Shown here in pieces: positions 1,876 to 54,448 of a DNA stretch of 64,000 bases (position 1 is the stretch's first letter; each line of letters opens with the position of its first letter). The notes under the pieces are model-generated. The model had not been told where the DNA came from. It ran no database searches and saw only the letters and a program-made list of their open reading frames with translations. The DNA comes from a virus. Taxonomy: Duplodnaviria; Caudoviricetes. The stretch spans positions 1-64,000 of the IMG/VR virus record IMGVR_UViG_3300028591_000117, one strand, 5' to 3'. A program made the position numbers and the translations under genes.

Positions 1876-3858
1876 TTAACTTAACTCTCTAGATAAACCT
1901 GATGGAGCTTCCATAGAACCACTAGCTTCAAAGTCACTATCACCAGCTCCTATCTCTTCTCCTTCAAGACTATCTTCATTATTTTCTTCAACATCACTTT
2001 CGAAGTTCTCTAAATCAGGTCCACCACTATCTAAACCTCCTAAGTCAGGTCCACCACCTAGACTCGGTCCACCTAAACTAGGACCTCCAGCTTCAGTATT
2101 TTCTTGTGATTGAGACAGCTCTCCATCTTGTTCTGCTTCTTCAATAATATCTAAATAATCAGAACCAAGCCACTCTTTAATCAATGAATTTCTTAACTCA
2201 GTAGTTCCAGCTACGTCTATTCCTAAATTCTCAAAGCTTTCAAGTAATTTACCTAATGTTTCTATTTGAACTTGTTTAGTTTCACATCTTTGATTATCTT
2301 CTTCAGTATTTATAGAAGTAAATACTATTTTAAAATCAGGTAGTTCTCTTAGAACACTCTCAGGTCTAGTAAACTCAAGATATTTTAAGCATAAATCTTT
2401 AAGACCTTCAGCAGCTATACTTTGAATACCTTTAATTGTTCTTGCATATCTTATATCCATTCTTGTTAATGATGTATTTATTAAACCACCACTATCTTCT
2501 GAGAAACCTAAGAATGCTTTTGGAATTCTTAATGCTGCAAATAACTTATCTTTAAAGTAATCTAAGTCTATAGCATCTTTAAGATTAACATCTCCACCAA
2601 CAACTTTAATATCTATATTACCAATACCATTACGTGTTGGAATAAAGATACTATCTCCTAGTGGAATTTGTCTCATTTCAGAGTTATATACTTTTTCTTT
2701 AACATTAATAGTCTCATCTGATTTAATTCTATTCTTTAGCTCATTAAGTATTTTCTTAGTTTCAGTATCACCTTTATTTCCAACTTCAACTGAGAATATA
2801 CGATATAGAGTAGAACGAGTCATACGAGTAAGCATTAAAATATCTTCAAGAGCAGATAAGATTTGCCAAGCAACAATAGCATTATCTAAATAAGACTGAC
2901 CTCTTCTTAATACAAAGTAATCTTTATTAGTTATACTATCATTATATGGACCAACTTCAAAGTTAATATGATATTTACCAGTACTATTAGCAAAGTTAAC
3001 TACATTTTTAGGACTAATAAAGAAATTAGGTTTTCTTACATCCATAAAAGCTATTGTTTTTCCTTTAGCTAATAATTCCCAGATATTAGTACCTGAACTT
3101 ATGCACTCAGTAAACCATCTTCCTCTAATTAGTCTTCTGATATCTTCATCATTACCTGATGTTAAAATATCTTCATTTAATTTCTGTTCTTTAAGAACTC
3201 TTTTACCTTTATTAGGTTTTAAAGCTTCATTAAGATACTTAATAACTCTATTCTTAGTACCTAAATCTGTCATACTATCAAAGTCTAAATTTTTAATACT
3301 CTCATTTAAAAGCTCAGTAAATTTAGATGTACTATCTTCTGTAATTCCTTCTTTAAGAATTTCATCAAAGATAGGTTTAGATATAGCTTCAAATGTTGGC
3401 TTATTCTTATCTATAAGAGCTAACCTATCGTCTTCTAACTTATCAATAAAATCAATTCTTACAGGACATTGACCATAGATAATAACTCTTCTAAGTATCT
3501 CTCTTAACTCTTTGTCCATTCTTAAATCAGATTTTAAGAAACGATTAAGCTCATCAGTTAAACCTTTAGCTAAGTCTTTTTCTAGTTTATCATCAGTATT
3601 ATCAACATCTATCCAGAAAATCTCCTGCTTTTGTGGGTCTACTTGAAGAGCATCATCAATATACATATCGACTGCAGCTGAGATAATTGCATCATCCATC
3701 ATTCTGTCTAATACATAATCAGTATTATAAGTATCAGATGCTATAAGTCTTAGTCCTCTAATAAAGTTATATGACTCAATGCCAGCTACTTCATAGTTCT
3801 GAGCTAAACCACTAGCTTCATTTAAAGACTGCTTGGATTTTCTACTAAATAATGCCAT
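1876..3858 (-). CDS. Portal protein, T4 gp20-like
   Basis: Motifs LEDILMLTRMTRST-YRIFSVEVGN, IFIPTR, DLDYFKDKLFAALRIPKAFLG and DIRYARTI are typical of gp20-like portals; acidic Gly-rich tail. Confidence 0.9.
   Translation of the reverse strand: MALFSRKSKQSLNEASGLAQNYEVAGIESYNFIRGLRLIASDTYNTDYVLDRMMDDAIISAAVDMYIDDALQVDPQKQEIFWIDVDNTDDKLEKDLAKGLTDELNRFLKSDLRMDKELREILRRVIIYGQCPVRIDFIDKLEDDRLALIDKNKPTFEAISKPIFDEILKEGITEDSTSKFTELLNESIKNLDFDSMTDLGTKNRVIKYLNEALKPNKGKRVLKEQKLNEDILTSGNDEDIRRLIRGRWFTECISSGTNIWELLAKGKTIAFMDVRKPNFFISPKNVVNFANSTGKYHINFEVGPYNDSITNKDYFVLRRGQSYLDNAIVAWQILSALEDILMLTRMTRSTLYRIFSVEVGNKGDTETKKILNELKNRIKSDETINVKEKVYNSEMRQIPLGDSIFIPTRNGIGNIDIKVVGGDVNLKDAIDLDYFKDKLFAALRIPKAFLGFSEDSGGLINTSLTRMDIRYARTIKGIQSIAAEGLKDLCLKYLEFTRPESVLRELPDFKIVFTSINTEEDNQRCETKQVQIETLGKLLESFENLGIDVAGTTELRNSLIKEWLGSDYLDIIEEAEQDGELSQSQENTEAGGPSLGGPSLGGGPDLGGLDSGGPDLENFESDVEENNEDSLEGEEIGAGDSDFEASGSMEAPSGLSRELS
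2010..2090 (-). repeat. Imperfect coding repeat GGP(S/D)LG in portal tail
   Basis: Translation GGPSLGGPSLGGGPDLGGLDSGGPDL. Confidence 0.7.
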
Positions 3859-3892
3859 AAATCTTTCCTCCTTTTCTTCATAACATCTAAAA

Positions 3893-3902
3893 TAATATAT
3901 AA
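3893..3902 (-). promoter_or_regulatory. Class II (late-type) promoter motif TTATATATTA upstream of portal
   Basis: Same motif at 8651, 9016, 31843, 51660 and 58977, usually right after a terminator U-tract. Confidence 0.55.
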
Positions 3903-3930
3903 AAAAGAGAACTAAATATTTAGTTCTCTT
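3901..3930 (-). terminator. Intrinsic terminator
   Basis: AGAGAACTAAA/TTTAGTTCTCT inverted repeat followed by a U-run on minus. Confidence 0.75.
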
Positions 3931-4297
3931 CTAATATTGACTTATCAATCATTCTTTCATCAAAACCTTCTACTATGAACTTATAGTATGTTCTCTTAGT
4001 ATTACCTGCTGGTAGAACTGATATTCTATATAAGCGTCGTTCTATTCCATCTTCTCTAGAAGGTAACTTACGATTACTCATACCACCTTCAAGAAAATCA
4101 GGACAATTCATAAACTCTTCTATAATGTCATAAGGAACTACCTTAGCATTAGGAATTATTCCACCTCCAGGTTCTTTACCAGAGTTTGGATAATTCTTTA
4201 ATTTAGCTCTAAGTTTAGCATACTCCTTATTTTTTGGTTTCTCTGAATGAGTCATATTGAATAATTGAATTAGTGCTTTGTCTGAAAATAGTTTCAT
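3920..4297 (-). CDS. Hypothetical protein
   Basis: ORF with GGAGG RBS. Confidence 0.6.
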   Translation of the reverse strand: MKLFSDKALIQLFNMTHSEKPKNKEYAKLRAKLKNYPNSGKEPGGGIIPNAKVVPYDIIEEFMNCPDFLEGGMSNRKLPSREDGIERRLYRISVLPAGNTKRTYYKFIVEGFDERMIDKSILEEN

Positions 4298-4305
4298 AAA
4301 TCCTC

Positions 4306-4458
4306 CTACTTATTTGTTCTTTTCTCAATTTCTTTTTTAACTTGTTTTAACATCTCTTTGTCATCATCAGTAGCTTTGTTCTTATCTACAAGACTTTGTA
4401 AGTCTTGTAGATATAACTTAAGCTCAACTAATGACCACTTCTTAAAACGGTCATTCAT
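4306..4458 (-). CDS. Small hypothetical protein (50 aa)
   Basis: Read by hand: MNDRFKKWSLVELKLYL...; AAGGA RBS; fills the gap between neighbours. Confidence 0.55.
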   Translation of the reverse strand: MNDRFKKWSLVELKLYLQDLQSLVDKNKATDDDKEMLKQVKKEIEKRTNK

Positions 4459-4470
4459 ATTAATTCCTTT

Positions 4471-4932
4471 CTAGTCTTCTAAGTATGGAAGCATTCTTTC
4501 TTCGAATGCATCAACATTTTCTGGTATAATATCACAAGCATCCATCATCCAAAACTTACCAGCGGTTCTCCATCCACAGTTCCAAGTGTCATATAAGTTT
4601 CCTTTAACAGCACATGTTAAGTGGTGAGCACAATGGATAAGTAATATAGAGTTAGGATATTCTTCTATTACTTCTTTAACTGTATACTTAGTTCCATCTG
4701 CATGTTTTAATTGTTTCATTTGTATGAACAAGTGGTCTTTTAAATATTGACCATAAACATGAGGGTCATTAGGCATTCTACATTTCTTAGCACCTATCTT
4801 GCATAAGTCTTCATATACTGAAGACCAATCCATCTTTTTATAAGCTGCTTCAATAGCTGTAGATACTGCTCTAACTACACAGTCACCAGTCTTCCATCCT
4901 TTAGGATTAGAATTATACCTAAAGAAATTCAT
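4471..4932 (-). CDS. Conserved phage hypothetical protein (possible papain-like Cys-His-Asp fold)
   Basis: NPKG...GDCVVRA...HLTC...DTW pattern. Confidence 0.5.
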   Translation of the reverse strand: MNFFRYNSNPKGWKTGDCVVRAVSTAIEAAYKKMDWSSVYEDLCKIGAKKCRMPNDPHVYGQYLKDHLFIQMKQLKHADGTKYTVKEVIEEYPNSILLIHCAHHLTCAVKGNLYDTWNCGWRTAGKFWMMDACDIIPENVDAFEERMLPYLED

Positions 4933-5049
4933 TAACCTACATCTCCTTTCATTTTAAATTTTCAAAGAACATTTCGATAAAACGATACATAAATTTAGTG
5001 CCTAGTATTTCGCTTTATCTGTATATATTATACCACTTTTTGACTAAAA

Positions 5050-5204
5050 TGTAAATTTACACTTTTTAAAGTGTAAACCACTTTACACTATTTTTAACCA
5101 GGTACTTGTTGCCACGCAATACTTTCAGAAGTTCGAAAAAATTTTTTAAAAAATTTTTAAGAAAAAGTGTAAACCATATTTCTAGGTTTACACTTACTTT
5201 ACAC
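5050..5204. repeat. Cluster of about 7 GTGTAAA/TTTACAC motifs in both orientations next to a sigmaA-type promoter
   Basis: Copies at 5050, 5056, 5071, 5082, 5167, 5187 and 5198; TG-x-TATAAT on minus at about 5027-5035. Confidence 0.6.
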
Positions 5205-5216
5205 TTTTATTATATA

Positions 5217-6707
5217 TTATTCTTTATTTTCAGGTACTTCATCTTCAATAATATCATACTTACTTCTATCAAATTTTTCACCATTACGTAAGTATTTATC
5301 TTTAGATTTAGACATCTTAGCATAAACTATTTGTTTAGCTTCATCTCTTAATTGTTTCATAGCTTTATCTAATAGTTTATATGATGAATAGAAATCAAGT
5401 GATAACTCTTGTTTTAAATCATTATATAACTTCATTAATTTATCATCAGCACCATCATAGTACTCATCTTTATGTGTATCATAGTTATAATGTTTAAAGT
5501 TAAAGTTATCTGAGAAATTAATACCTCTACCACCATCATAGTAAATTGTATATATTGGTTGGCTATCTCCTCTGTCTGTAGTCATAAAGTTCATTAATCT
5601 ATCTAATTCTTCTTGACCATATTTTTCAGCTAAATCTGTATTATTTCTAATATAAGAAGCTAATTCACTTTTAGTTATATAGAACTTAGTCATAAAACCA
5701 CGACCCCATCTACCACTTGGTTCATGAGTCATGTTATATAACAAACTCTCTATATCAAAGTTACCTGGTTCTAACTCTAAACCTCTTTGAGACATATACT
5801 CAGTAAATTCATTTTCTAGTATCTCAGTCATTCTATCGAACATCTTTTGAATTTGCATTCTTATTTTTCTATCAGATATTCTTTCTTTCCAATACTCTTC
5901 AAGTTCATCAAAATCAAATATCTCTATATAATCTTCAACATCGATATCTTTAGCTTCAGTTAAACCATGCTCTTTAATAAATGACTCATCTAAGTTTTTA
6001 GCTCTTATAACTTTACCATACTGGTCATACCAGTTTTTACTTAATTCATCTTCTTTCTCTTTAGCAGATAAATTAGTATACTTATCATAGTTACCTCTTA
6101 ATTTTTTAAACTCAGCTATATGTTCTTGAATAGCTTTTACTAAACCTTCATAAATTTCACCTAAAAAATCATTTATAGCTACTTTACTTTGTCTTCTTAA
6201 ATCATCAAAGTTAGTATAACCACTTAATATCTTTCTCATAGCTGATGTCTTATTATTCCATGGGTCTTCACCAGTAAAATTAACTGCGAAATCTTCAACA
6301 TAACTATGAGCATCAGGCATCATCTCTAATTCAGAAAATTTACTAGCTACAAATTCAGCTAAATTCTTAGGTTTAACGTCTACATAAATTGACTCTCTAT
6401 CATAGTCTTCTTTTAAACCTACAGGACTTCCATACTTAGGAGCAAATGTATCTGGAACTACTTTATTAAATCTATTTGTTAAATCTAATACAGCATCTTG
6501 TTTAAACCTTTCTTTAGCATCTGTGTCTGAACTATCTCTACTTCCTGTCATATTTTCTCTTGTTCTTTGATTTAATTCTTTAAAATCATAACCTTTAACT
6601 TTTCTTCTTATCTTTATCTTTTGAGGCATTTCAACTAAAGTTTCTTTATTATTTGTTGACTCTTTTAATAAAGATAATATATTCATACTTATTCTATCTT
6701 TTGCCAT
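5217..6707 (-). CDS. Putative internal head protein with L/I-x-E sites
   Basis: LLKES, LVEM, LKED, LDES and LTEA motifs; directly downstream of terminase. Confidence 0.5.
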   Translation of the reverse strand: MAKDRISMNILSLLKESTNNKETLVEMPQKIKIRRKVKGYDFKELNQRTRENMTGSRDSSDTDAKERFKQDAVLDLTNRFNKVVPDTFAPKYGSPVGLKEDYDRESIYVDVKPKNLAEFVASKFSELEMMPDAHSYVEDFAVNFTGEDPWNNKTSAMRKILSGYTNFDDLRRQSKVAINDFLGEIYEGLVKAIQEHIAEFKKLRGNYDKYTNLSAKEKEDELSKNWYDQYGKVIRAKNLDESFIKEHGLTEAKDIDVEDYIEIFDFDELEEYWKERISDRKIRMQIQKMFDRMTEILENEFTEYMSQRGLELEPGNFDIESLLYNMTHEPSGRWGRGFMTKFYITKSELASYIRNNTDLAEKYGQEELDRLMNFMTTDRGDSQPIYTIYYDGGRGINFSDNFNFKHYNYDTHKDEYYDGADDKLMKLYNDLKQELSLDFYSSYKLLDKAMKQLRDEAKQIVYAKMSKSKDKYLRNGEKFDRSKYDIIEDEVPENKE

Positions 6708-6727
6708 AATTTAAACTCCTTTCTAAT

Positions 6728-8617
6728 TTAATATATATTTTTAAAGCCATTTAATAACTCGTCTCTATCATTAACATAACTATTATACTTAGTATCATTC
6801 AAAAAGTAATTTATATCACTTTCTCTTTGAGTTTCTTCTACTGCTGGATATTCAAGAGCATTTGCTACTGAACCACAAACTGCATCGGAAACGTCTTTTG
6901 TTCCACCTTCTTTTACTGGTGGATGGTCTACTTTACCTTGAGCTCTATACCAATTTAAACCGAATAACTCTTTCTCATACCACTCATTTCTATAATGATG
7001 AATTCTTCCTTGATAATATAACTCAGTTAAATCTAAATACTCTTTATCACTTCTATCTACAGACCTAAACTCAACATTATAACCAGACTTAGATAAATCT
7101 TGAACAGCTTCTGCAGATTGGAAAGTATCGTATGTTATCTTTCCATAAGATATTCCAAATACTCTCTCTTGCCAAGGTATTATACTTCTAACCTTAGCTA
7201 AATCAATCTTGTGAGGTGGCTTTGGAGGATTTATTCTAATCATCCAATCAAATTTAATACTTACTTTAGGTAAACCATATTCATCATAAGTAACTCCATC
7301 TATATAGCACTGAGCAGCACCATAGCTATCTCCAGATGTTGATTGGTCGAAGTGTATAAATCTCTTCTTAGTTACATCTTTCGGTCTCCAGTCTTTCTTA
7401 AAATAATCCTGGATAGTTGTATTAGCATTAGTTGATATTACTATCTGGTCTTGAGTAAATGGACTTTCTTCATCAGTTAATGCTCTTGCATAACTATCTC
7501 TATTTGAGAATAACTTACCTGTTGCAGCTACTGGTACACCAGCTATATCTTGTAATGCTTGGATTATATTACCTTCAAACTCTTTTCTAAAGTTTTCAGG
7601 TACTTCTATAAACCTCTTTTTAATATCATAATCATTTATATCTCTTATCGCTTCGTTTGGAGTATCACATTTGACTTCTGGTAAACGATAATGTATTCTA
7701 ATATAATTTATATCAGCCACACTATTACATATTACAGGGTCAATCAATTCATTTCCTGAAAAAACAACAAATCTTTCTTTAGAATATGTATCTACATTTT
7801 TAACTTCCCATATCTTAGCATCAAATACTATAACATGCTCATCTCCAGCACTCTCTTTAATTCTCTCTTCAGTAAAAGAACTTTCATACATACTAGATGA
7901 AACTAATACATTAAATGTAAAATCTTCATTATTTACTACGAAACGAGATTTACCTCTGGCTCTAACTGAGTTATACAGTTCTTTAGCTTTTGATTGAACG
8001 TCATTTATTGAAGTTCCTTTATTCTGAACTCCATCACCTTTAAAGAAGTTTGCTTCATCTACAAAGAATGATATTAAGTTCATACCTAGAACATCATTAC
8101 TTGTTGAAGCTGCCTTCATATAAATTCTAGACTGAGGCCACTCTAGTATTGAGTTTATTCTCTCGTTTCTTTTAAATATATTTTGGAAATAAGGTATAGT
8201 ATCTATTAAATCTCTTATCTGAGCAAAACCAACTTGGCCTGCTAAATCTTTAGTTATATTGAAATAAGCAAATAATATTTTAGAGTTAGTCATTAAATTA
8301 TATAAAGCTTGTGGTGGATAGTAACATGATAGTTCATAAAGTTTATATGCTATCATATAAACTGCAGCTGTTGACTTACCAGTACCTATAGAACCTGTAA
8401 TAATAACTTCATTTATTCTTATTTTATTATTAAAGACTTTTATTATAGCATCTTTCCAATATGGATATAACTGACTTGATGAAGGTCCTGAGTAAAACTC
8501 TTCACTTAACCAAGTTTCTATAGGAACTATCTCTCTTAATAATTTAGCTTCTTTGCCAACACCTTTAAACTCACTTATATCTTTAAATAAACTTTGTAAT
8601 TTTAAAGTATCTTCCAT
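6728..8617 (-). CDS. terL: Terminase large subunit
   Basis: Walker A ITGSIGTGKST, Walker B FFVDEA, RNase H-like nuclease HFDQS...YDTFQS...KVDHP...KDVSDA. Confidence 0.9.
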   Translation of the reverse strand: MEDTLKLQSLFKDISEFKGVGKEAKLLREIVPIETWLSEEFYSGPSSSQLYPYWKDAIIKVFNNKIRINEVIITGSIGTGKSTAAVYMIAYKLYELSCYYPPQALYNLMTNSKILFAYFNITKDLAGQVGFAQIRDLIDTIPYFQNIFKRNERINSILEWPQSRIYMKAASTSNDVLGMNLISFFVDEANFFKGDGVQNKGTSINDVQSKAKELYNSVRARGKSRFVVNNEDFTFNVLVSSSMYESSFTEERIKESAGDEHVIVFDAKIWEVKNVDTYSKERFVVFSGNELIDPVICNSVADINYIRIHYRLPEVKCDTPNEAIRDINDYDIKKRFIEVPENFRKEFEGNIIQALQDIAGVPVAATGKLFSNRDSYARALTDEESPFTQDQIVISTNANTTIQDYFKKDWRPKDVTKKRFIHFDQSTSGDSYGAAQCYIDGVTYDEYGLPKVSIKFDWMIRINPPKPPHKIDLAKVRSIIPWQERVFGISYGKITYDTFQSAEAVQDLSKSGYNVEFRSVDRSDKEYLDLTELYYQGRIHHYRNEWYEKELFGLNWYRAQGKVDHPPVKEGGTKDVSDAVCGSVANALEYPAVEETQRESDINYFLNDTKYNSYVNDRDELLNGFKNIY

Positions 8618-14514: not shown

Positions 14515-14796
14515 CTATTTTTCTATACTAGCTCTAGTATCAATTGACTCTCTAAGAGCTTTTATATCTTTCTCATTTTCCCAATTTACACTTAATGTTC
14601 TATACTTTCCTCTCTTTTTAGGAATAAATATATCTGGGTAAAAAGCTTTTAATTCACTCATTCTAGCACTAGCTTCATAACCAATAAAACAATCTTCTGA
14701 TTGAAAATCAGTTGCATACCACTCTTCAATTTCAGGATGACTTAACATGTGATTTATCATCTTATCAAATTGTTTATTATATTTAATATTAGCCAT
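14515..14796 (-). CDS. Hypothetical protein (possible winged helix)
   Basis: ORF coupled to dut; ASARMSEL helix. Confidence 0.5.
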   Translation of the reverse strand: MANIKYNKQFDKMINHMLSHPEIEEWYATDFQSEDCFIGYEASARMSELKAFYPDIFIPKKRGKYRTLSVNWENEKDIKALRESIDTRASIEK

Positions 14797-15251
14797 TACT
14801 TAACTCCTGTAGAACCGAAACCTCCATCACCACGCTCAGTATTGCAGTATTCTTCATATACTTCACCTGAAACTTCTTCAGTAGAACATAGTGACACAGG
14901 AACTACTAGACCTTGAACTATCTTATCTCCAGCTTCAATAAGTTGTATTTCAGTTCCATTATTAAATAGATGTAGATGTACATTACCTCTATAATCACTA
15001 TCAACTACACAAGCTCCAATAGTTAATTTTCTTTTAGTTGCTACTCCAGATTTTTCTTTAAATATTAGTGCATAACCTTTAGGAACTACTACTCTTACAC
15101 CAGCATCAATTAGTATATCTTGTCCTGGTTCTAGAGTTACAGCACCAAAATCTTCAGGTACAAAGAAATCTATACCTGCATCTGTATCATGTCCTCTTAC
15201 TGGACTTTTAACATTTTTAGTTTTTGTAAATATTAATTTAAAATCTTCCAT
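14796..15251 (-). CDS. dut: Trimeric dUTPase
   Basis: Motifs DAGIDF, KSG, VVDSDYRG, GDKIVQ and RGDGGFGSTG. Confidence 0.95.
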   Translation of the reverse strand: MEDFKLIFTKTKNVKSPVRGHDTDAGIDFFVPEDFGAVTLEPGQDILIDAGVRVVVPKGYALIFKEKSGVATKRKLTIGACVVDSDYRGNVHLHLFNNGTEIQLIEAGDKIVQGLVVPVSLCSTEEVSGEVYEEYCNTERGDGGFGSTGVK

Positions 15252-15285
15252 TTTATATTTCTCCTTCTAATATATTATATGAATT

Positions 15286-15717
15286 CTAGAAGTCTTCATT
15301 AATAGGATGACCTGAGTAAAGACAATCTCTTCCTTCTATATAGACTTTAAGTTCTACTTCTTCATCTTCACTATTAAGTATTCTTTCTAAATCTTCTCTT
15401 TTTATTTTAATCTTCCTTACTTGGTCTGCTTCTTTAATACAAGAAGTTCGTGTTGGAAAATCATAAGATATTAATTCATCAGAATTTAGTGTAGTATATG
15501 TAGTAGTTATAGTACTACCATCAAGTGTTATATTATCTTCTCCATCTTTAATAACTTTAAAATAGTCTGCACTAGACTCTTCTTTAGTATCTTCTCCTTC
15601 GTGTAACTTAGATTGAAACTCTTTTCTTAATTGTTCTTTAGTCATCTCTTTATTTAACTTATCTTCTAAAGTAGTATCATTAAACTCATTAATCACTTTA
15701 TCTATATCTATCATCAT
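15286..15717 (-). CDS. Hypothetical protein
   Basis: ORF overlapping the kinase stop. Confidence 0.5.
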   Translation of the reverse strand: MMIDIDKVINEFNDTTLEDKLNKEMTKEQLRKEFQSKLHEGEDTKEESSADYFKVIKDGEDNITLDGSTITTTYTTLNSDELISYDFPTRTSCIKEADQVRKIKIKREDLERILNSEDEEVELKVYIEGRDCLYSGHPINEDF

Positions 15718-16177
15718 TTAACTCCTCTAGTCTTTTAACTACTTCTTTAATAATCTTAATTGGAGTTTCATTTGATGTATTAAACATCATAAAGTGGTCT
15801 CCATATTTTTCTCCATACTTATTTACTAGATATGCAAATGCATCTCTAAAAGCTTCTTTATTAGAGCTATATACTACCTCAGCTTCCATATCTGAACGAG
15901 ACTTATTCTTCTCATGTTCTCCTGTAAGTTTACATCTTACATTCCAGTCATCTTCATCTACTTCTAATAATACAAATAGAGTATTCTCTATATATCCTTC
16001 AGTTATTTCATACTCATAATCTCTATTATATAAATTAGAATATGCTATTTGTGATAATAAACCTCTAGACTTAGGTATATACTTATTAGGAGCTACTGCA
16101 AAGATTTGATGCATTATACTGTCCTTACCTGCTTTATCTATTCCATCAAATTCTACATTAAATACTTTATACTTCAT
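15698..16177 (-). CDS. Deoxynucleoside monophosphate kinase (thymidylate kinase-like)
   Basis: P-loop VEFDGIDKAGKD; SRGLLSQIAY in place of the TMK DRxxxSxxAY motif. Confidence 0.75.
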   Translation of the reverse strand: MKYKVFNVEFDGIDKAGKDSIMHQIFAVAPNKYIPKSRGLLSQIAYSNLYNRDYEYEITEGYIENTLFVLLEVDEDDWNVRCKLTGEHEKNKSRSDMEAEVVYSSNKEAFRDAFAYLVNKYGEKYGDHFMMFNTSNETPIKIIKEVVKRLEELNDDRYR

Positions 16178-17198
16178 ATCTTCTTACCTCTACTTTCACA
16201 TCTTTATCATAGTGCATTATCTTAGTTAAGTTGCCTTCACACCATAAGTAGACTACATAGTACTTACCATCATCTCCTAGTAAGAAATCATAGTAATAAA
16301 CTTTATCATTAGGTCTTGTATAGTCTTGCTTATATTTATATCTTATGTAAACTTTATAATCTCCTAACATTTCAAATTTAGGTAATTCTAGGTCAAGTAT
16401 CTCTTCACTTTTAACTTCTCCTATATTACGACCACAAGATAGATGGTATGTAGGTTTTCCTAAAAAGGTTTTATTTATTGGAGGTATCTTATAGACCATA
16501 GGTACTATAGCTTTCTTAGTTCCTTCTATTCCAACTAAACTATCATAGTTAGGTTCATAGTTCTTTATTACATCTAAATATTCATTAGTATGTCTTATAG
16601 AACCTGCTCTTATAATTACTATATCTGAGTATTTAGCTGCAAATGATAGTAAATAAGGTAAACCAAAGTCAGCCACATTTCTCCAGCTATTATACTTACC
16701 TCCTAAAATTGCATAAGATATTATCTTAATATTATTCTCTCTACAAAAGTTAATTGTATCTATATCTAAATAATATGGATTAACTTCTACTTCATTATAT
16801 GCTGGAAACTTACCTATTACTTCTTTATACTTTATAATATCTTCTTTAGTAAAATTAGATACTCCTACTTCTTTAAAGCGAGAGTCATTATTTATCTTCT
16901 TAGCTAGCTCAGTCCAGTCTCCTCTATTAGAATGTATTAGCATTATATCTATATAGTCTCTACCTAAACATTTAAGATGGTTAGATACAAAGAACTCATA
17001 ATTAGAATAATGACAGAATGATAGCTTAGATATTATCTTATAATGTGGTATATTCTTAAATAAGTAATCATTATTATAGTCTACTGCAGTATCTATATAG
17101 TCTGCAATTGTAGAGAAAGAGTCTAACTGGTAGGCTCTTTCTAGTTCAGACATTAACTCATACTCATAAGAACCTATTGCAAAAGTTCTTTTAATCAT
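16167..17198 (-). CDS. Aldo/keto reductase family protein
   Basis: IDTAVDYNN, IISK, LGRDYIDIMLIH, VGVSNF, NEVEVNPY and IISYAILGGK (D-Y-K-H tetrad present). Confidence 0.85.
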   Translation of the reverse strand: MIKRTFAIGSYEYELMSELERAYQLDSFSTIADYIDTAVDYNNDYLFKNIPHYKIISKLSFCHYSNYEFFVSNHLKCLGRDYIDIMLIHSNRGDWTELAKKINNDSRFKEVGVSNFTKEDIIKYKEVIGKFPAYNEVEVNPYYLDIDTINFCRENNIKIISYAILGGKYNSWRNVADFGLPYLLSFAAKYSDIVIIRAGSIRHTNEYLDVIKNYEPNYDSLVGIEGTKKAIVPMVYKIPPINKTFLGKPTYHLSCGRNIGEVKSEEILDLELPKFEMLGDYKVYIRYKYKQDYTRPNDKVYYYDFLLGDDGKYYVVYLWCEGNLTKIMHYDKDVKVEVRRYEV

Positions 17199-17203
17199 AT
17201 TAG

Positions 17204-18193
17204 TTATTCACTTCTTTCTTCTTTATTTCTATAATATGAAGCTTCTTTAATTCTTTGAGCAGCTACTAATCTAAAGTCTTTATCATAAGTAGTTGGTAGT
17301 TCTTTACCTTCAGCTTCAAGCTTCATCCAGTTTTCTATCATTTCCTTTTCTCCAGGAAATAATAGCTCTGGTTGAGTTCTATATATCTTCTCTAATTCTA
17401 ACTTCCAGCTAGATGTTCTCCAATCATTGTGTGCTGGTTCTGCAAACTTATAACCTTCTGGAGTTGGAAATCTAGCAAAATCATTATTATATGTATGGTC
17501 TCTCTTATAGAATGATTTATTATCAGCCATAGCTAATAACCAATTCCATAGTTTCTTAGATAGTGGGTCTGTAACTTCTTTCTCAATTGCTTTTCTTAAC
17601 TCATTATACATTAAACGATATATGTAGTTAATTTCATCTGCAAAGTTATTTTCTGTTCTACTATTACAACTTCTTAACCAATTAGATGTTGGAGCTGTAT
17701 ATGTAAGAGATATTGTTTGAGCATGGAAGCCAAAGTATCTAGCATCCATATATGATACTCCACCTTCACACATATCTATATACAAATCTTCTATCTCTCT
17801 TTGGATTTTATTTAATCTATCCATCCACTCTTTATTATTATAAATAAACTTTGGTGTGATAAAGTCTTGAGTTAATGGTCTTACATCACCTGAAGCTGAA
17901 CAGAAGAAACCTCTTTCTCTTGTTAGTTGAGCAAGACATACTCTTGAAATACCTTCAATTTGAAATGCTACATTATGTCCTTCTAATGCATACTTAGGAA
18001 ATGTTTTACCACTAATAATCTCATCTACTATATGTTGAGCAAACTCATTATCTGGAGTATATCCTCCTTCTCCTATTCCTTCATAGAATTCTGCTAAATT
18101 ACCAAACATTACTACTTGTCTAGCTAAATCATTACCTGCAAAACTTAATAACTTTACTTTAATATCATCATATCCATTATGAAAATGTGCCAT
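17204..18193 (-). CDS. Divergent ThyX (flavin-dependent thymidylate synthase)-like protein
   Basis: FQIEGISRVCLAQLTRER, MDARYF and R...DEIN align to ThyX, but the RHRxxSxxxxSxRY signature is altered; C-terminal extension. Confidence 0.75.
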   Translation of the reverse strand: MAHFHNGYDDIKVKLLSFAGNDLARQVVMFGNLAEFYEGIGEGGYTPDNEFAQHIVDEIISGKTFPKYALEGHNVAFQIEGISRVCLAQLTRERGFFCSASGDVRPLTQDFITPKFIYNNKEWMDRLNKIQREIEDLYIDMCEGGVSYMDARYFGFHAQTISLTYTAPTSNWLRSCNSRTENNFADEINYIYRLMYNELRKAIEKEVTDPLSKKLWNWLLAMADNKSFYKRDHTYNNDFARFPTPEGYKFAEPAHNDWRTSSWKLELEKIYRTQPELLFPGEKEMIENWMKLEAEGKELPTTYDKDFRLVAAQRIKEASYYRNKEERSE

Positions 18194-18424
18194 ATATTTT
18201 ACCTCCTACTATATTATATGTTTTCTATACATTTAACTACTGTATAACCCATTATATCTATTCTATCTTTAATAATATAACTTTTATTATTTACTATAAT
18301 ATCATCATCTCTTTTAAGCATACTAGATGCTGGTACTAAACTATTAGGAAAAGTAAACTGAGTTATCGTCTCTTCTCCTTCTCTATAAATACAACAAGGC
18401 ATTTTATCAAATGCTATTATATAA

Positions 18425-18994
18425 CTATTTTCCATTATTTTCCTCCTCACTATTAATATGTAGTTTCTTTTCTAATTTATCAAATAACTTTACTATTCTT
18501 AAAGAAACTTCATTTTTAATTATTTGCATATCTTCATGTTTATTTCCATGTAATATCTCTCTATTAACATATTGTAAGACTGAGATAGCATCTCCTAGCT
18601 CTACAAGATTAAATGAAATACTTGTTCCTTGAGAGTACTCATTATATAGAACTTGTAACTCAGGCATTTCTTCTTTTATAAACTCTTTCTCAATAGTTGA
18701 TAGTATATCTCTTAGCTCTGGATGTTTTGTTTTACAGTCATGAGGTATGTCTGAAGTAAACATCTCAGGACAATCATGTACTATTGCCATAGCACAAGCT
18801 TTATATACTGTAGAACTATCTATATTATAATTAAAACCTATCTTTAATATATTATAAGCTACCATAAATGAATGTTGTGCTAGGTCTTCATTATGAATTC
18901 TATGACGATTATTATATCGTACTTGTTGAGTCATTATCATTGGAAAGATATCTCCATATAAATCTAGTACATTTAACTCTCTAAGTTTCTTCAT
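18425..18994 (-). CDS. HD-domain deoxynucleotide phosphohydrolase (YfbR/DatZ-like)
   Basis: RY...EDLAQHSF...AIVHDCPE...DIP...GD. Confidence 0.85.
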   Translation of the reverse strand: MKKLRELNVLDLYGDIFPMIMTQQVRYNNRHRIHNEDLAQHSFMVAYNILKIGFNYNIDSSTVYKACAMAIVHDCPEMFTSDIPHDCKTKHPELRDILSTIEKEFIKEEMPELQVLYNEYSQGTSISFNLVELGDAISVLQYVNREILHGNKHEDMQIIKNEVSLRIVKLFDKLEKKLHINSEEENNGK

Positions 18995-18995
18995 C

Positions 18996-19517
18996 TTACT
19001 CTACCTCATCAAAATTATTTCCTTCAAATAATTCTTCAGCTTCGTCTATTCCATGTTCTTTAATATAAAATAAAGTCTTTTCTAAATATTCTCTAGGTTC
19101 TATCTCTCTATTCTGCATTATAAATGGTAGTAAAGTAGACATCGCTAACATTAAGTTAGGACCTTTATCTGCAGGTCTAGTCTCATTAAAGTATAGTACT
19201 GGTACTTTCTTAGCATAAGCATAGCCACACTCAAACATAGTTCCTGTATCATTGCCATCTAGAACAGCTAAAACAAAGTCTGCATTATCTATATTAAATG
19301 TATTACCTTCAAATGTCTTTATCATATCTTCTTGACTACATCCAGGTTTTATTCTAGATGCTTGTCTAGGACTAAATACACTAAAATTATATTTATCTAA
19401 TATATCTTCAAGATAATTAATTCTTTCTTCTTGCTCTTCATTAAAGAATGGTCCAGCTAGATATACTTTAGTTCTTCCATCATCTGAATAATTCTTCATG
19501 TGTTCTTTAATTTCCAT
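18996..19517 (-). CDS. Nucleoside 2-deoxyribosyltransferase / nucleotide N-glycosidase family
   Basis: YLAGPFF, FSP, DTGTMFECGYAYA and NLML. Confidence 0.85.
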   Translation of the reverse strand: MEIKEHMKNYSDDGRTKVYLAGPFFNEEQEERINYLEDILDKYNFSVFSPRQASRIKPGCSQEDMIKTFEGNTFNIDNADFVLAVLDGNDTGTMFECGYAYAKKVPVLYFNETRPADKGPNLMLAMSTLLPFIMQNREIEPREYLEKTLFYIKEHGIDEAEELFEGNNFDEVE

Positions 19518-23696: not shown

Positions 23697-24689
23697 CTAA
23701 TTATTATCATATTGTGTAGACATAACAAACTTAGTTTGAACTAATGTAGTATTAGCATAGAATGACTTAGTAGATTGGTCTATATCTAAGTTCTGTAGTT
23801 CTTTATGAGCTATATACATATTAGTATCTATATAATCTGCATAATGAACTATCATCGCTTCTTGAGTTGCTGGAGTTCTTGAACTACCCCACTCTAATTT
23901 ACCATGATGACTTAGTATTATATGAGCTATATGATATAAATCTCTTTCTGAAAAACTATAAACACTATCTTCACCATGATAATACTCTTCAAATACTATT
24001 CTAGTTCCTATATTAAGATGGTCAAATAACTTACCTTCACCTGATACTTGTCCTTCTTCATTATACTCGTATATCTTTCCTATATCATGTAGTATCGCTC
24101 CAGCAATTACTATATCCATATCTATATTTGTATAATTAAATGCTATATAATATGCTAACTTAACTACATTAGCTGTATGTAATAATAAACCTGACTTAAT
24201 ATTATGATGTACATTAGTAGCGGCTGGCCATACTAAGAACATTTTAGACTTCTTCTCAAGAATATTTCTTACAAAATCTCTTAGTGCTTCTGACTTTATC
24301 TTACTAATAAAGAAATTTATAGTATTCTCATATTTTTGAGTATCTACTTTCTGGTCTTCTAATATCAAACATTTATGTGGTGGTAGCTGGCTAGACCTAA
24401 GCTCTGGTATATCTTCATTAACTACTTCATAACCATGACAGTTTATTCCTTGGTCTGTAATTATATAAGCCATCTTAATATTACATCCTTTAGTTAACTT
24501 CTCTTTACTATCTTTAAATGGAATAACTATAGTATCATAATCTCTATTTTGAACATGTATCTTATACTTATTTTCATTAGGTACTTCTGCGAAGTCTATT
24601 ACTTTAAAATATCCATGAAGTATTACATACTCTTGTCCACTATTAGACTTATATATCATACCTTCAGCTTTTGTTTTTAGATTTATCAT
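23697..24689 (-). CDS. OB-fold plus HD nuclease (YhaM/Cbf1-like)
   Basis: PAATNVHH...GLLLHT...LHDIGKIYEY...ILSHHGKLEWGS...P...EA..VHYAD. Confidence 0.85.
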   Translation of the reverse strand: MINLKTKAEGMIYKSNSGQEYVILHGYFKVIDFAEVPNENKYKIHVQNRDYDTIVIPFKDSKEKLTKGCNIKMAYIITDQGINCHGYEVVNEDIPELRSSQLPPHKCLILEDQKVDTQKYENTINFFISKIKSEALRDFVRNILEKKSKMFLVWPAATNVHHNIKSGLLLHTANVVKLAYYIAFNYTNIDMDIVIAGAILHDIGKIYEYNEEGQVSGEGKLFDHLNIGTRIVFEEYYHGEDSVYSFSERDLYHIAHIILSHHGKLEWGSSRTPATQEAMIVHYADYIDTNMYIAHKELQNLDIDQSTKSFYANTTLVQTKFVMSTQYDNN

Positions 24690-31858: not shown

Positions 31859-32347
31859 TTAACTTATAGAAATATCTACTTTTACTTTAGACTCTTGTTT
31901 AAACTCTTCAAATTCAATTCCACACTCATTTAATATTATTCTAGATGCTTCATAAATAGGTTCATCATGATGATAATCATATAAGTATATTACTTTTTTA
32001 ACTCTTAGCTGAGCTAATAGCTTAGCACAGTTATCACAAGGAAATAAAGTTACATATACAGTTGAGTTTTTAAAATCTTTTACAGAACCTCCATAGTTAG
32101 TTACAGCATTCATTTCAGCGTGACACATATAAGGATATTTTTGTTTAATATATGGTAGTGAAGTATCTCTACTCCAAGGTACCTTATTATCATCAAAATC
32201 TCTAGGAGCTCCATTATAACCAATACTCATTATCTTATTATCTTCACTAACAAATACAGCTCCAACTTGAGTACTAGGGTCTTTACTTCTTAAAGCTGAT
32301 ATTTGAGCTATATACATATAGTACTCATTCCAAGTTATTCTATCCAT
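31859..32347 (-). CDS. dCMP deaminase
   Basis: RSKDPSTQVGA, GYNG, HAE and PCDNC. Confidence 0.92.
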   Translation of the reverse strand: MDRITWNEYYMYIAQISALRSKDPSTQVGAVFVSEDNKIMSIGYNGAPRDFDDNKVPWSRDTSLPYIKQKYPYMCHAEMNAVTNYGGSVKDFKNSTVYVTLFPCDNCAKLLAQLRVKKVIYLYDYHHDEPIYEASRIILNECGIEFEEFKQESKVKVDISIS

Positions 32348-51694: not shown

Positions 51695-52204
51695 CTATAA
51701 TTCATAAAGAATGACTTTTCCTTCAAAGATTGACTTTTTAACATCAATAATTCTTTGATTGGAACTTCCTCTAAATGGAAGAGTGATATCTCTTTTTTCT
51801 ATTTCAAATGAACCATCTACAAGAACATCTACAAAATATTGTAGAAACTCTAACCAGTCATCTTTTATATCTTCATAGGTATTTCCAGTATAAACCCAAA
51901 TCTTTATATAAGGATTAGCTTCTTTTATTAAAGAACATAAAGTCATAAGTTCTTCTTTATTTCTATCTAGTAGAGGTTCTCCACCTACAATTGAAAATCT
52001 TTTAATACCAGGCCTACAACAAGCAGCAACAATTCTATCTCTAAACTCAATAGTATATTGTTCTCCACCATCTAAGTCCCAAGCTTTTTGATTAAAACAT
52101 CCTTTACAATGTCTTAAACATCCTTGAGTATATAATGATACACCAACATCTGTACCATTAACTATCTCAAAGAAGTCTATTCCAGAGTATCTCATTATCT
52201 CCAC
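51695..52204 (-). CDS. nrdG: Anaerobic ribonucleotide reductase activase
   Basis: GCLRHCKGCFN, GGEP and FRGSSNQRIID. Confidence 0.95.
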   Translation of the reverse strand: MEIMRYSGIDFFEIVNGTDVGVSLYTQGCLRHCKGCFNQKAWDLDGGEQYTIEFRDRIVAACCRPGIKRFSIVGGEPLLDRNKEELMTLCSLIKEANPYIKIWVYTGNTYEDIKDDWLEFLQYFVDVLVDGSFEIEKRDITLPFRGSSNQRIIDVKKSIFEGKVILYEL

Positions 52205-54438
52205 TCCTCTAAATTCTTGCTATGTTTATATCTATCTTCAACTTCTTTTTGTTTACCATAATTGAATGCAGATTTATAATCACCAGTTAAATAACCTGTT
52301 ACTCTTCTTAATTGTTGAATATTATGACTTCCACACATAGGACAGTGGTCATTAAACTCATCACAATAGCCACAGTCTAAACAAGTATCATTAGGAACAT
52401 TAATAGCAAAGTAAGGTATATCTTTATCCATAGCATAATTTACTATAGTCTCTAAAGCATCTAAGTTATTTTTAGCTCCACTATCAAGTTCAATATAAGT
52501 TATACATCCAGCATTTGAGTAATTTGTTAATTCTGCTTCAATGTCTATTTTATCAAATGGACTCATCTTTTCCCAAACAGGAACATGCATTGAGTTTGTA
52601 AAATAGTCTCTATCACTAACTTTTTCAATAACTCCATATTTTTCTTTAAACTTCTTCATTGCAGTATAACATAAATTTTCTGCTGGAGTATAATATACAC
52701 CAACATTTAAATGAAGTTTTTGTTTAAACTCAGCACATCTATCTTTAAATAATTGCTCAATTCTTTTAGCTAAACTCATTCCTTCAGAAGTAGTATGATT
52801 TTTACATATCAATATTTGTAAAGTTTCAGCTAAACCTAACTGACCTATTACTAAAGTTCCATGTTTCATAGCACTTTCAACAGTTTTACCATCATAACCT
52901 AACATTAAACCGTTTTCATACATAAATTTAGCTGACTCAGGATTTTGACTTATAATATGTTTATATCTTTCTAATAACATTTCCATTGCTTCATCTATTT
53001 TAGTATTTAATATTTCCATAAATGCACTTATCGGGTCTAAACAGTCATCATTAGTTTTTCCAAATCCAGCTGCAATTGCTTTTTCTTTAGCTTCCATAGC
53101 TAAAGTAGGTAAAATAATAGTTACAGGACAAATGTTTCCACGACCATCTTTTATCTGAGCATTAGTACCAGGTTCTGCATTTATATCTTTACCATTATAA
53201 GTTCTACAACCCATAGTAGCTACATAAGTTCTAGGGTCATTTCTATCATAACCTTCATTAACTGACCAATCTACATTAGCATAATTAGGATATAACCTCT
53301 TTGCAGTTGATTTTAAAGCTAATTTAAATAAATCATAATTAGGTTCTCCTGGTTTTCTGTTAACTCCTTTCATACATTGAAATATTCCACAAGGAAATAT
53401 AGGAGTTTTATGAACTTTTCCAACACCTTTAAGACTTCCTTCTAGTAAAGCTTTTATTACCATTCTACCTTCAGGTAAAGTACATGTTCCATAGTTAATA
53501 CTTGTAAATGGTAATTGATTACCACTTCTACTTTGTAATGTATTTAAATTATGATACATTCCTTCAACAGCTTGTTGTGTCTCTCTAGTAGTTAAATCTA
53601 AAGCATATTTATAAGCTTTTGCATAATATTTATATTCATCTGAGTCAATACTTAAATCTTCAGGATGTTCTATTTCAGCTAACTCATCATTATAAATATA
53701 TTTAAATCCATCTTTAAAATGTTTATAAAATGATTTTCTAACATAAGGAACCATAGTCCAATCTAAATGTGAAGCACTTACTCCACCAAATTGTTGTAAA
53801 CTTTGTAATTGAAATATTACAGCTACAAGCTGCATTGCTGTATTTATACTATTTGCAGGTCTTACATCTGCTTGTCTAGTATTAAAACCATTCTTTAATA
53901 AATCATCAAATGGTATTGTTAAACAGTTATGTTCTCCAACAGCATAACTATCTAAATCATGAATATATATTTCATTATTTAAATGATTATTCTTAGCCAT
54001 ATCAGATATTAAATAATCTAAAGCGTATTTCTTCATGATACTATTTCTAGCTTCACCCATTCTTCCACCAAATGAATGTTCATCAACATTAGCATTTTGG
54101 TTTTGAACGTTTGTAGCCATAACTTTTTCTTTAATTTCATTCATTAACTCAGAGTCTTTATCTCTAAGCATCTCTCTCTTATATCTATATCTAATATAAG
54201 CTCTTGCAACATCTTTTCTATTGCAAGCCATAAGTTTATCTTCAACAATATCTTGAATTTCTTCAACAGAGATATTATCTTCTAATCTTGAGATGTATGT
54301 AGCAATTTCCCAAGCTTTAGACTTAGCAAAATCACTTATCTCATTATCAACATCATTAAATGCAGACTGAACTGCATTTATAATTTTATTTTTATCGAAT
54401 GTCTCTTCTTTACCATTTCTTTTAATTACTTTTTCCAT
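52195..54438 (-). CDS. nrdD: Anaerobic (class III) ribonucleotide reductase with ATP cone
   Basis: VIKRNG ATP cone, IYIHDLD, MGCRT, TPAENL, YFTNS, CxxC/CxxC and RRVTGYL glycyl radical site. Confidence 0.97.
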   Translation of the reverse strand: MEKVIKRNGKEETFDKNKIINAVQSAFNDVDNEISDFAKSKAWEIATYISRLEDNISVEEIQDIVEDKLMACNRKDVARAYIRYRYKREMLRDKDSELMNEIKEKVMATNVQNQNANVDEHSFGGRMGEARNSIMKKYALDYLISDMAKNNHLNNEIYIHDLDSYAVGEHNCLTIPFDDLLKNGFNTRQADVRPANSINTAMQLVAVIFQLQSLQQFGGVSASHLDWTMVPYVRKSFYKHFKDGFKYIYNDELAEIEHPEDLSIDSDEYKYYAKAYKYALDLTTRETQQAVEGMYHNLNTLQSRSGNQLPFTSINYGTCTLPEGRMVIKALLEGSLKGVGKVHKTPIFPCGIFQCMKGVNRKPGEPNYDLFKLALKSTAKRLYPNYANVDWSVNEGYDRNDPRTYVATMGCRTYNGKDINAEPGTNAQIKDGRGNICPVTIILPTLAMEAKEKAIAAGFGKTNDDCLDPISAFMEILNTKIDEAMEMLLERYKHIISQNPESAKFMYENGLMLGYDGKTVESAMKHGTLVIGQLGLAETLQILICKNHTTSEGMSLAKRIEQLFKDRCAEFKQKLHLNVGVYYTPAENLCYTAMKKFKEKYGVIEKVSDRDYFTNSMHVPVWEKMSPFDKIDIEAELTNYSNAGCITYIELDSGAKNNLDALETIVNYAMDKDIPYFAINVPNDTCLDCGYCDEFNDHCPMCGSHNIQQLRRVTGYLTGDYKSAFNYGKQKEVEDRYKHSKNLEEWR

Positions 54439-54448
54439 ATATACTCTC

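Follow-up and report, generated by a model that had tools for sequence, protein, structure and literature searches.

What does a phage make with a homologue of the flavin-dependent thymidylate synthase ThyX that has lost part of its signature and sits between a nucleoside transferase, a phosphohydrolase, a reductase and a kinase? The question is raised by IMG/VR record IMGVR_UViG_3300028591_000117, a 123.5-kb viral contig (CheckV completeness 86%; G000 below), whose first 64 kb are the window analysed here. Eight co-directional genes, all on the minus strand, lie at positions 14796-19517 of the window, and six of them encode nucleotide enzymes. As transcribed from 19517 to 14796, they specify a protein of the nucleoside 2-deoxyribosyltransferase family (NDT), a small HD phosphohydrolase (HD), a 78-aa open reading frame (ORF), a ThyX-like protein that we call ThyXL, an aldo-keto reductase (AKR), a small P-loop kinase, a 143-aa ORF and a dUTPase. 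An earlier interpretation made from the letters alone (the sequence-only reading) had taken the cluster for a pathway to a sugar-chain-substituted uracil. Its six clustered nucleotide enzymes in one orientation were borne out by the ORF layout and by Pfam and PHROG matches, and so were its abutting ThyX-like, AKR and kinase genes (a 5-nt gap between ThyXL and AKR, an 11-nt overlap between AKR and kinase). We conclude that the cluster belongs to a widespread phage module, the probable product of which is a non-canonical pyrimidine deoxynucleotide formed ahead of DNA synthesis.

ThyXL scored 47.1 bits against Pfam PF02511 (gathering cut-off 24.8), with the match confined to the middle third of the protein, and its family profile aligned to canonical ThyX with an hhalign E-value of 1e-33. 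The structure model proposed as a check by the sequence-only reading was built with AlphaFold2 (AF2) and 32 relatives (pLDDT 94.6), and it has the ThyX fold. ThyX and PolB were its top solved folds (Foldseek TM by target 0.66-0.73), and comparison with 1o26 and 4p5b gave a VIA Z of 13.6 over approximately 200 residues at 14-19% identity. A phmmer search of solved-structure sequences with ThyXL gave no match, and tblastn against isolated phages gave only a canonical Clostridium phage ThyX covering 38% of the query. Homologues numbered 366 in a 90%-clustered database, the best 120 of them being 65-93% identical and all 320-329 aa long; clustering at 50% identity gave 93 matches, about 45 of which were full length. 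The ThyXL clade was monophyletic in a maximum-likelihood tree (support 95/92), with a 322-aa protein of Geobacillus phage GR1 as its sister on a long branch, and ThyXL was strongly constrained over its whole length. Profile, tree and model thus agree in showing a genuine ThyX paralogue that is rewired and under strong conservation.

Family alignments and hhalign reproduced the motif changes described by the sequence-only reading (RER, lost SxRY, GHxS and NxR residues, a long C-terminal extension). The ISRxxLAQLTR core, the first Arg of RHR, the Ser of SxRY and the Arg of DARY are kept family-wide, together with the Arg of LRL (T. maritima R174; R179 here, nearly invariant) and the Glu of QWEI. 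RHR has become RER, with the second Arg variable across the family; in SxRY the Ser remains (S101-G-D-V), the Arg and Tyr are lost, and the complete signature RHRxxSxxxxSxRY is absent. The His of GHxS is replaced by Thr64 and that of LEH by Gly72, NxR reads PxS (Pro168/Ser170), AQxEIR reads xxDEIN with loss of the Gln and Arg, and the His after LRL is lost too. Two features are new, an invariant Asp186 that forms an Asp-Glu pair with the conserved Glu across the family, and a C-terminal extension of about 125 aa with a few conserved residues. Among the positions that the family has lost are the counterparts of T. maritima H53, R90 and Y91, and point-mutant structures have been solved for all three; the His53 equivalent is Gly and the Glu144 equivalent is Met or Gln. 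We take the His of RHR to be T. maritima H79, and the LRL Arg presumably pairs with uracil O4 in ThyX. With the roles that we assume for the T. maritima residues at the nucleotide, folate/NADPH and flavin adenine dinucleotide (FAD) sites, the nucleotide site of ThyXL looks largely kept, and both the folate/NADPH side and a portion of the FAD site appear rebuilt. Because the nucleotide-binding skeleton of ThyX is kept, ThyXL probably still acts on C5 of deoxyuridine monophosphate (dUMP). Because the folate/NADPH His and Glu and several FAD contacts are lost, and an Asp-Glu pair and an extension gained, the group that it adds is probably not a methyl derived from folate and reduced by hydride.

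Is ThyXL then the phage's own thymidylate synthase? The contig was found to encode neither ThyA nor a canonical-scoring ThyX. Outside the window, at G000:118382-119535 (L029:5383-6536, minus strand), a gene for thymidine kinase (PF00265, 1.9e-32) adjoins one for a degenerate ThyX-like protein of 198 aa. That protein matched Pfam at 0.0059 and canonical ThyX at an hhalign probability of 94%; in it RHR reads RHH, the tail is rich in Cys and the substrate loop is missing. ThyXL also occurs in three relatives with terminal repeats, G001 (332 kb), G002 (188 kb) and G003 (301 kb). The second ThyX of G001 has RHRxxSxxxxSxRY intact, and that of G003 is a 237-aa Thy1 protein (120 bits) that keeps SxRY and has THI for RHR; both phages encode thymidine kinase as well. 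In the maximum-likelihood tree the second ThyX copies of the terminal-repeat relatives fell with canonical ThyX. G002 pairs ThyXL with a ThyX paralogue of yet another kind (L026:1120-2031, minus strand), which is 303 aa long and shows THRxxSRNxxSSRA and a HASPFEH segment near the C-terminus.

Since the terminal-repeat relatives keep a second, canonical-grouping ThyX, ThyXL probably has a separate job rather than serving as a plain thymidylate synthase. Retention of two ThyX genes speaks for distinct functions without proving them, since there are bacteria with two thymidylate synthases. With thymidine kinase and a second ThyX encoded, thymine is probably still made and probably not excluded from the DNA, so that any replacement would be partial.

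Conserved gene order was assessed in 13 related loci (L002-L013 and L018; nine contigs from IMG/VR and four from ENA, of which three are TAG-recoded), which together with this window make up the 14 loci counted here. Their contigs span 10-332 kb at 28-39% GC. NDT, HD and kinase genes were found around ThyXL: the kinase is next to it in all 13 related loci, HD flanks it in every related locus extending far enough, and NDT is present in 9/9 IMG/VR loci and in L018. Because the same neighbours recur in 13 independent loci, the clustering is beyond chance. NDT, HD, ThyXL and the kinase are a conserved four-gene core. The five-gene synteny expected by the sequence-only reading held for NDT, HD and kinase and failed for the AKR, which is accessory: it occurs in 5/14 loci (L005, L006, L012, L018 and this window), always abutting ThyXL. 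A dUTPase gene accompanies the core in L009 too, directly upstream of NDT. As variable extras, L013 carries two DXD glycosyltransferases and L012 an APH/choline-kinase-like gene, and Pfam and PHROG scans of the window proteins showed no glycosyltransferase near the module here. The glycosyltransferases of L013 and of phage GR1 (below) and the L012 gene may be decorating enzymes, and we count them in favour of base modification. The TAG-recoded relatives carry 510-535-aa DUF7487 proteins between module genes; we rejected these as tailoring enzymes, since they have a restriction-endonuclease-like domain and occupy varying intergenic sites, like homing endonucleases.

The sequence-only reading had assigned NDT to the Rcl/MilB type of glycosidase, a step that the comparison with solved relatives did not support. 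The best of these were true nucleoside 2-deoxyribosyltransferases (6evs at 2.6e-11, 7m5h, 1s2d), and chains of Rcl, DNPH1 and MilB were absent from the matches at E<=1. Y19, D90, G92, T93, E96 and N121 were invariant in 10/10 module NDTs, which places in the protein the catalytic Tyr and Glu nucleophile of the transferases and their 5'-OH-binding Asp (in DxGT) and Asn (in NLM). This Asp and Asn hold the 5'-OH in NDTs and are replaced in hydrolases of deoxynucleoside monophosphates (dNMPs) (PMC12884076; Kaminski and Labesse 2013 cited there). NDT therefore looks nucleoside-type rather than like an Rcl/MilB-type dNMP glycosidase, and release of a sugar 5-phosphate is unlikely because D90 and N121 are kept and Rcl and MilB gave no match. 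HD scored 52.3 bits against PF12917 (cut-off 25.9) and aligned across the HD motif to its solved relatives PH0347 (2cqz, 9e-8), the OxsA-like 1xx7 (2.6e-6) and DatZ (6zpa, 4.5e-6); archaeal proteins of the OxsA-like kind and DatZ are its closest kin.

The AKR scored 37.4 bits against its Pfam model (cut-off 24). Its AF2 model (pLDDT 90.1) has a shortened barrel and an extra C-terminal beta-rich part, and matched AKR1C3, 2,5-DKG reductase and others in Foldseek (E about 1e-10, TM by target 0.53-0.64). Among 23 sequences, Y41, K58 and H89 of the tetrad were invariant and D36 was conserved in at least 90%. By model and alignment the protein is an AKR-fold oxidoreductase with the Asp-Tyr-Lys-His tetrad, and carbonyl reduction is predicted for it. 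The kinase has the P-loop GIDKAGKD and, as the sequence-only reading had noticed and the family alignment reproduced, SR in place of the thymidylate kinase DR motif (SRG here). It reached 20.2 bits against PF02223 (cut-off 27), and with 159 aa is too short for a full lid. The best solved match of its family profile was the thymidylate kinase (TMK) 9wd2 (E 0.0087), and its ESM Atlas neighbours were viral clusters of small TMK-like or deoxynucleoside kinase (dNK)-like proteins.

The nearest relative of the module was found in the cultured siphovirus Geobacillus phage GR1 (OK896991) at 23.9-29.7 kb. GR1 encodes an NDT (45% identity), an HD protein (38% identity), a P-loop NTPase and the 322-aa ThyX-like sister of ThyXL, which like ThyXL has KTxP in place of GHxS and unlike ThyXL keeps RHR. 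Thioredoxin, glycosyltransferase, RNase H and nitroreductase-type flavin reductase genes are interleaved in GR1, unlike here, and the AKR is absent. Our literature search returned no study of GR1 DNA composition. Canonical ThyX (PF02511; T. maritima TM0449) and PolB share with ThyXL the fold, the ISRxxLAQLTR core and the kept Arg, Ser and Glu residues; they differ at RHR, SxRY, GHxS...LEH and NxR, and ThyXL adds Asp186 and the extension.

A second group of phages places similar partners around another ThyX derivative. Hypermodified thymidines carrying a hydroxylated pentyl linker have been measured in SP-15, YerA41 and Carin-5 (PMC5977210, PMC12686479, PMC13697223), and the dihydroxypentyluracil of SP-15 is made at the triphosphate level (PMC5977210). 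The title of a 1978 paper cited in that article states that ribose label enters dihydroxypentyluracil. The Pfam model found two Thy1 genes in SP-15, and searches with the ThyXL profile and with ThyA found no match. One of the two, gp130, is a divergent ThyX that follows NDT gp127, a small ORF and gp129, a reductase of the short-chain dehydrogenase/reductase (SDR) type. Kropinski et al. (PMC5977210) proposed gp130 as the synthase of 5-hydroxymethyl-dUMP (hmdUMP) and listed gp129 among the modification genes, with NDT unmentioned; published work assumes hmdUMP synthesis by gp130-type proteins. The SP-15 comparison suggested by the sequence-only reading thus yielded an analogous cluster of NDT, reductase and divergent ThyX, and no orthologue of ThyXL or homologue of the AKR, the places of which are taken by gp130 and the SDR.

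gp130 was published as a protein without homologues. By sequence comparison it does have them, in an orthologue in Streptococcus phage vB_SagM-GXN1 and a relative in a Vibrio phage. At 5001-7347 of GXN1 (L038, PQ819873) an NDT gene that is unannotated in the record and an HD gene (its product and the window HD are 35% identical) precede a 411-aa protein 40% identical to gp130. Vibrio phage 150E35-1 (L041, OX241562, 2129-4552) has HD, a gp130-type protein annotated as hypothetical, and NDT; in Listeria phage LIS04 a gp130-type protein lies beside NDT and/or HD. In YerA41 (L036, MW570730) the gp130-type gp081 (3523-4686) lies 2.3 kb from gp086 (6983-7519), which is annotated as a mannosyltransferase and matches the window NDT (33% identity, 7e-11). 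These proteins resemble ThyXL in being divergent ThyX derivatives with a long extension that lie beside NDT and/or a small HD protein, in SP-15 with an NAD(P)H reductase as a further neighbour and with gp130 accompanied, like ThyXL, by a second, canonical-type ThyX. The reductase of SP-15 is an SDR and not an AKR. Direct hhalign comparison of ThyXL with the gp130 types gave probabilities from 0.4% (gp130) to 29% (profile against profile). By these scores the two are independent ThyX offshoots, and their shared context is convergent or modular, not orthologous. A side observation concerns a 330-aa protein encoded at 23697-24689 of the window (minus strand) with an HD domain at residues 171-289; in its size and in the position of this HD domain it is like SP-15 gp119 (OB fold plus HD).

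Two characterised strategies combine comparable enzymes. In Z-genome phages the NDT-family DmtZ (a dAMP hydrolase/transferase) and the YfbR-like DatZ clear the canonical nucleotide (a 2026 paper, PMC12884076), the same two families as here, alongside a replacement-nucleotide synthase. DmtZ lacks the 5'-OH-binding residues that the window NDT keeps, and the target base here is presumably a pyrimidine; a Z genome was dropped as an explanation because the contig has no PurZ. The pathways to hydroxymethyl-dU and hypermodified thymidine in SPO1, phiW-14, ViI and M6 likewise combine a synthase paralogue, a kinase and a canonical-nucleotide hydrolase (PMC8989533, PMC5977210) and are fed by dUTPase and dCMP deaminase. 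Their hydrolase is a dTTPase/dTMPase, their kinase a dedicated one, and tailoring follows after replication. They use a ThyA-type dUMP hydroxymethylase, in contrast to the ThyX fold, the NDT and, in some loci, the AKR seen here. A Pfam scan of approximately 60 G000 proteins, a subset of its ORFs, gave no match to 5-HMUDK or aGPT-Pplase.

Our hypothesis is that the product of the module is a non-canonical C5-substituted dUMP, which the kinase of the module phosphorylates and which partly replaces thymine; of the readings considered here it is the likeliest, at about even odds. The dUTPase beside the core and the dCMP deaminase elsewhere would feed dUMP; the deaminase gene named for this role by the sequence-only reading is present, away from the cluster. 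ThyXL would modify C5, and the kinase would convert the product to the diphosphate for eventual use by the family-A polymerase of the phage. HD (dNMP to deoxynucleoside) and then NDT would act at the nucleoside level, where they might clear away a canonical competitor, in the manner of DatZ and DmtZ, or might release free 2-deoxyribose to act as the aldehyde from which the C5 substituent is donated. Should a pentose be supplied at all, this route from dNMP to deoxynucleoside and on to base and free 2-deoxyribose fits better than a sugar 5-phosphate. The AKR, as optional tailoring enzyme, would reduce a carbonyl of the donor or the product. Possible products are, likeliest first, 5-hydroxymethyl-dU or another one-carbon variant, and a hydroxyalkyl (pentyl-type) linker like those of SP-15, YerA41 and Carin-5. 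An aldehyde donor is chemically plausible because the ThyX structures 7ndw and 7ndz, among the fold matches of ThyXL, hold a flavin N5-carbinolamine with formaldehyde. In its most specific form, which we consider unlikely, ThyXL would be a flavin-dependent reductive alkylase that joins C1 of 2-deoxyribose, delivered by HD and NDT and trimmed by the AKR, to C5 of dUMP, giving a hydroxylated pentyl-dUMP that the kinase activates; such a pathway would have arisen independently, out of a different ThyX lineage, in gut and rumen phages that are abundant.

Several observations weigh against base modification. Thymidine kinase in G000, G001 and G003 suggests that dTMP is still made, and each core enzyme would also fit ordinary dTTP supply and salvage for a genome with 72% A+T. 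The lost FAD contacts of ThyXL (the His of RHR, NxR and the His after LRL) leave flavin chemistry less than assured. The AKR is missing from most loci, and a 400-aa branch of the same AKR family occurs in other phage contigs with no ThyXL nearby; the 341-aa and 144-aa neighbours of that subfamily were considered as ThyXL and kinase counterparts and ruled out. The SP-15 parallel is an analogy only, since ThyXL and gp130 are not specifically related, and gp130-type phages have SP15-like polymerases fused to uracil-DNA glycosylase (UDG) (PMC13697223), unlike the PolA of G000, in which Pfam found no UDG domain. The ready assembly of these phages from Illumina metagenomes argues against very bulky modifications.

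An ordinary function would make ThyXL a divergent but functional synthase and the kinase a dTMP kinase in an AT-rich phage, with HD and NDT recycling the dNMPs of the host through loss of phosphate and exchange of bases, thymidine kinase phosphorylating the products again and the AKR as an unrelated passenger. We regard this, the main rival, as possible but rather unlikely. dUTPase, dCMP deaminase, a ThyX-like protein, a TMK-like kinase and thymidine kinase do make up the textbook dTTP route in a 28% GC genome without ThyA or a canonical-scoring ThyX, the NDT looks like a true nucleoside transferase, and two thymidylate synthases are known to coexist in some bacteria. This account sits poorly with the pairing of ThyXL and a canonical-grouping ThyX in the terminal-repeat relatives, with the family-wide loss of the H53, R90 and Y91 equivalents and of the RHR His, and with an AKR that abuts ThyXL whenever it is present; a new function is suggested by the conservation of the extension and by the new, invariant Asp, and in thymidine-hypermodified phages a different divergent ThyX likewise has NDT and/or HD as partners.

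Cytosine, modified at C5, is a further conceivable product: ThyXL would act on dCMP as the ThyX-fold counterpart of T4 gp42 and the 5-hydroxy-dCMP synthases, the kinase would take the role of T4 gp1, and HD and NDT would remove dCTP, dCMP or deoxycytidine. The set of canonical-type ThyX, thymidine kinase and ThyXL in G001 and G003 resembles T4 td, tk, cd, 42 and 1, the new Asp lies next to a conserved Glu, glycosyltransferases stand beside the module in L013, and phages have repurposed the thymidylate-synthase superfamily for cytosine chemistry (PMC13326640). With R179, the presumed partner of uracil O4, nearly invariant, a dUTPase gene directly adjacent both here and in L009, and the analogous gp130-type modules belonging to thymidine-modified phages, we hold a cytosine product to be quite improbable. 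The scheme of the sequence-only reading taken literally, in which an Rcl/MilB-type glycosidase yields a pentose 5-phosphate that ThyXL couples to C5 of dUMP, followed by AKR reduction, phosphorylation by the kinase and trimming of the canonical pool by HD to give an SP-15-like sugar-chain uracil, appears very improbable. The nucleoside-type 5'-OH pocket of NDT makes its first step unlikely, 9/14 loci lack the AKR, SP-15 itself has no ThyXL or AKR homologue, and no glycosyltransferase was seen near the module in the window. What speaks for it are the adjoining NDT, reductase and divergent ThyX of SP-15, the ribose-label title of 1978 together with triphosphate-level synthesis in SP-15 (PMC5977210), the carbinolamine structures, which make an aldehyde donor conceivable, and the lost folate contacts of ThyXL.

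Base modification by way of C5-substituted dUMP would place this module among the nucleotide-level pyrimidine modifications as a ThyX-fold variant, and it is probably new as such. The experimentally characterised phage examples in the literature that we found all use a ThyA-fold synthase. We know of no ThyX-fold enzyme shown to make anything but (d)TMP. With 366 homologues and contigs of up to 332 kb, some of them stop-recoded, the module is a common feature of large phages of gut and rumen that have yet to be cultured, and GR1 offers a cultured relative in which to test it. A new base would bear on restriction and CRISPR evasion by phages with ThyXL, on their recovery in metagenomic sequencing and on the enzyme repertoire for modified DNA. 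How the dihydroxypentyl linker is made has been an unsolved problem for some 50 years; the NDT/HD/reductase context common to SP-15, YerA41 and relatives is a concrete, testable gene set, and reductive alkylation, if true, would supply the chemistry still lacking for the pentyl linkers found in SP-15, YerA41 and Carin-5.

Positions of the cluster genes, in order of transcription, and of the remote dCMP deaminase gene (window coordinates)
Feature	Position	Strand	Matches
NDT-family protein, 173 aa	18996..19517	-	PF05014 5.8e-20; phrog_7995 4e-28
Small HD phosphohydrolase, YfbR/OxsA/DatZ type, 189 aa	18425..18994	-	PF12917 7.4e-14; phrog_7076 'dATP triphosphohydrolase' 6e-20
78-aa ORF, GTG start, doubtful gene	18214..18450	-	no Pfam/PHROG match; no tblastn match in related loci
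ThyXL, ThyX-fold paralogue, 329 aa	17204..18193	-	PF02511 3.2e-12, residues 68-202 only
Aldo-keto reductase (AKR), 343 aa	16167..17198	-	PF00248 2e-9, residues 67-167 only
Small P-loop kinase, TMK/dNK-like, 159 aa	15698..16177	-	PF02223 5e-4, below family cut-off
143-aa acidic ORF	15286..15717	-	no Pfam/PHROG match; not found in related loci
Trimeric-type dUTPase, 151 aa	14796..15251	-	PF00692 7.4e-18; phrog_135 5e-42
dCMP deaminase, putative remote dUMP supplier	31859..32347	-	PF00383 3.4e-26 at G000:31982-32335

The usual dUTPase motifs were readable in the translation of the last cluster gene. A promoter scan of the locus gave nothing above shuffled sequences, and a single terminator-like site was found, at 14030-14007. 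The only match of the cluster DNA in a nucleotide-level search of isolated phages was 47 nt of the dUTPase gene, and no description of a ThyXL-centred module was found in the literature.

The window has 28% GC, and 146/146 of its ORFs of at least 60 aa lie on the minus strand and use the standard code. In the recoded relatives L002, L003 and L004 (ENA contigs of up to 289 kb), reading TAG as sense raised the coding density from 0.44-0.55 to at least 0.90. A 67-kb contig (L045, CAAGKY010000102.1) held the sole ThyXL match among 185,579 species genomes, at 62% identity; it is binned into a human-gut 'Bacilli bacterium' metagenome-assembled genome, which could be a weak host clue or could reflect mis-binning. 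G000 comes from a large tailed phage of gut type; it encodes a T4-type portal, sigma factor, clamp-loader-like protein, primase and Mre11/SbcC-like proteins, and additionally RecA, GroEL, the anaerobic ribonucleotide reductase NrdD, DNA ligase, a family-A polymerase and DnaB. The NrdD gene, with an ATP cone (7.7e-147), and the gene for the ATP-dependent ligase lie at 52195-54465 and 55306-56628 of the window (minus strand). As predicted proteins, NrdD and the ligase indicate a largely self-sufficient nucleotide and replication apparatus, and NrdD points to an anaerobic host.

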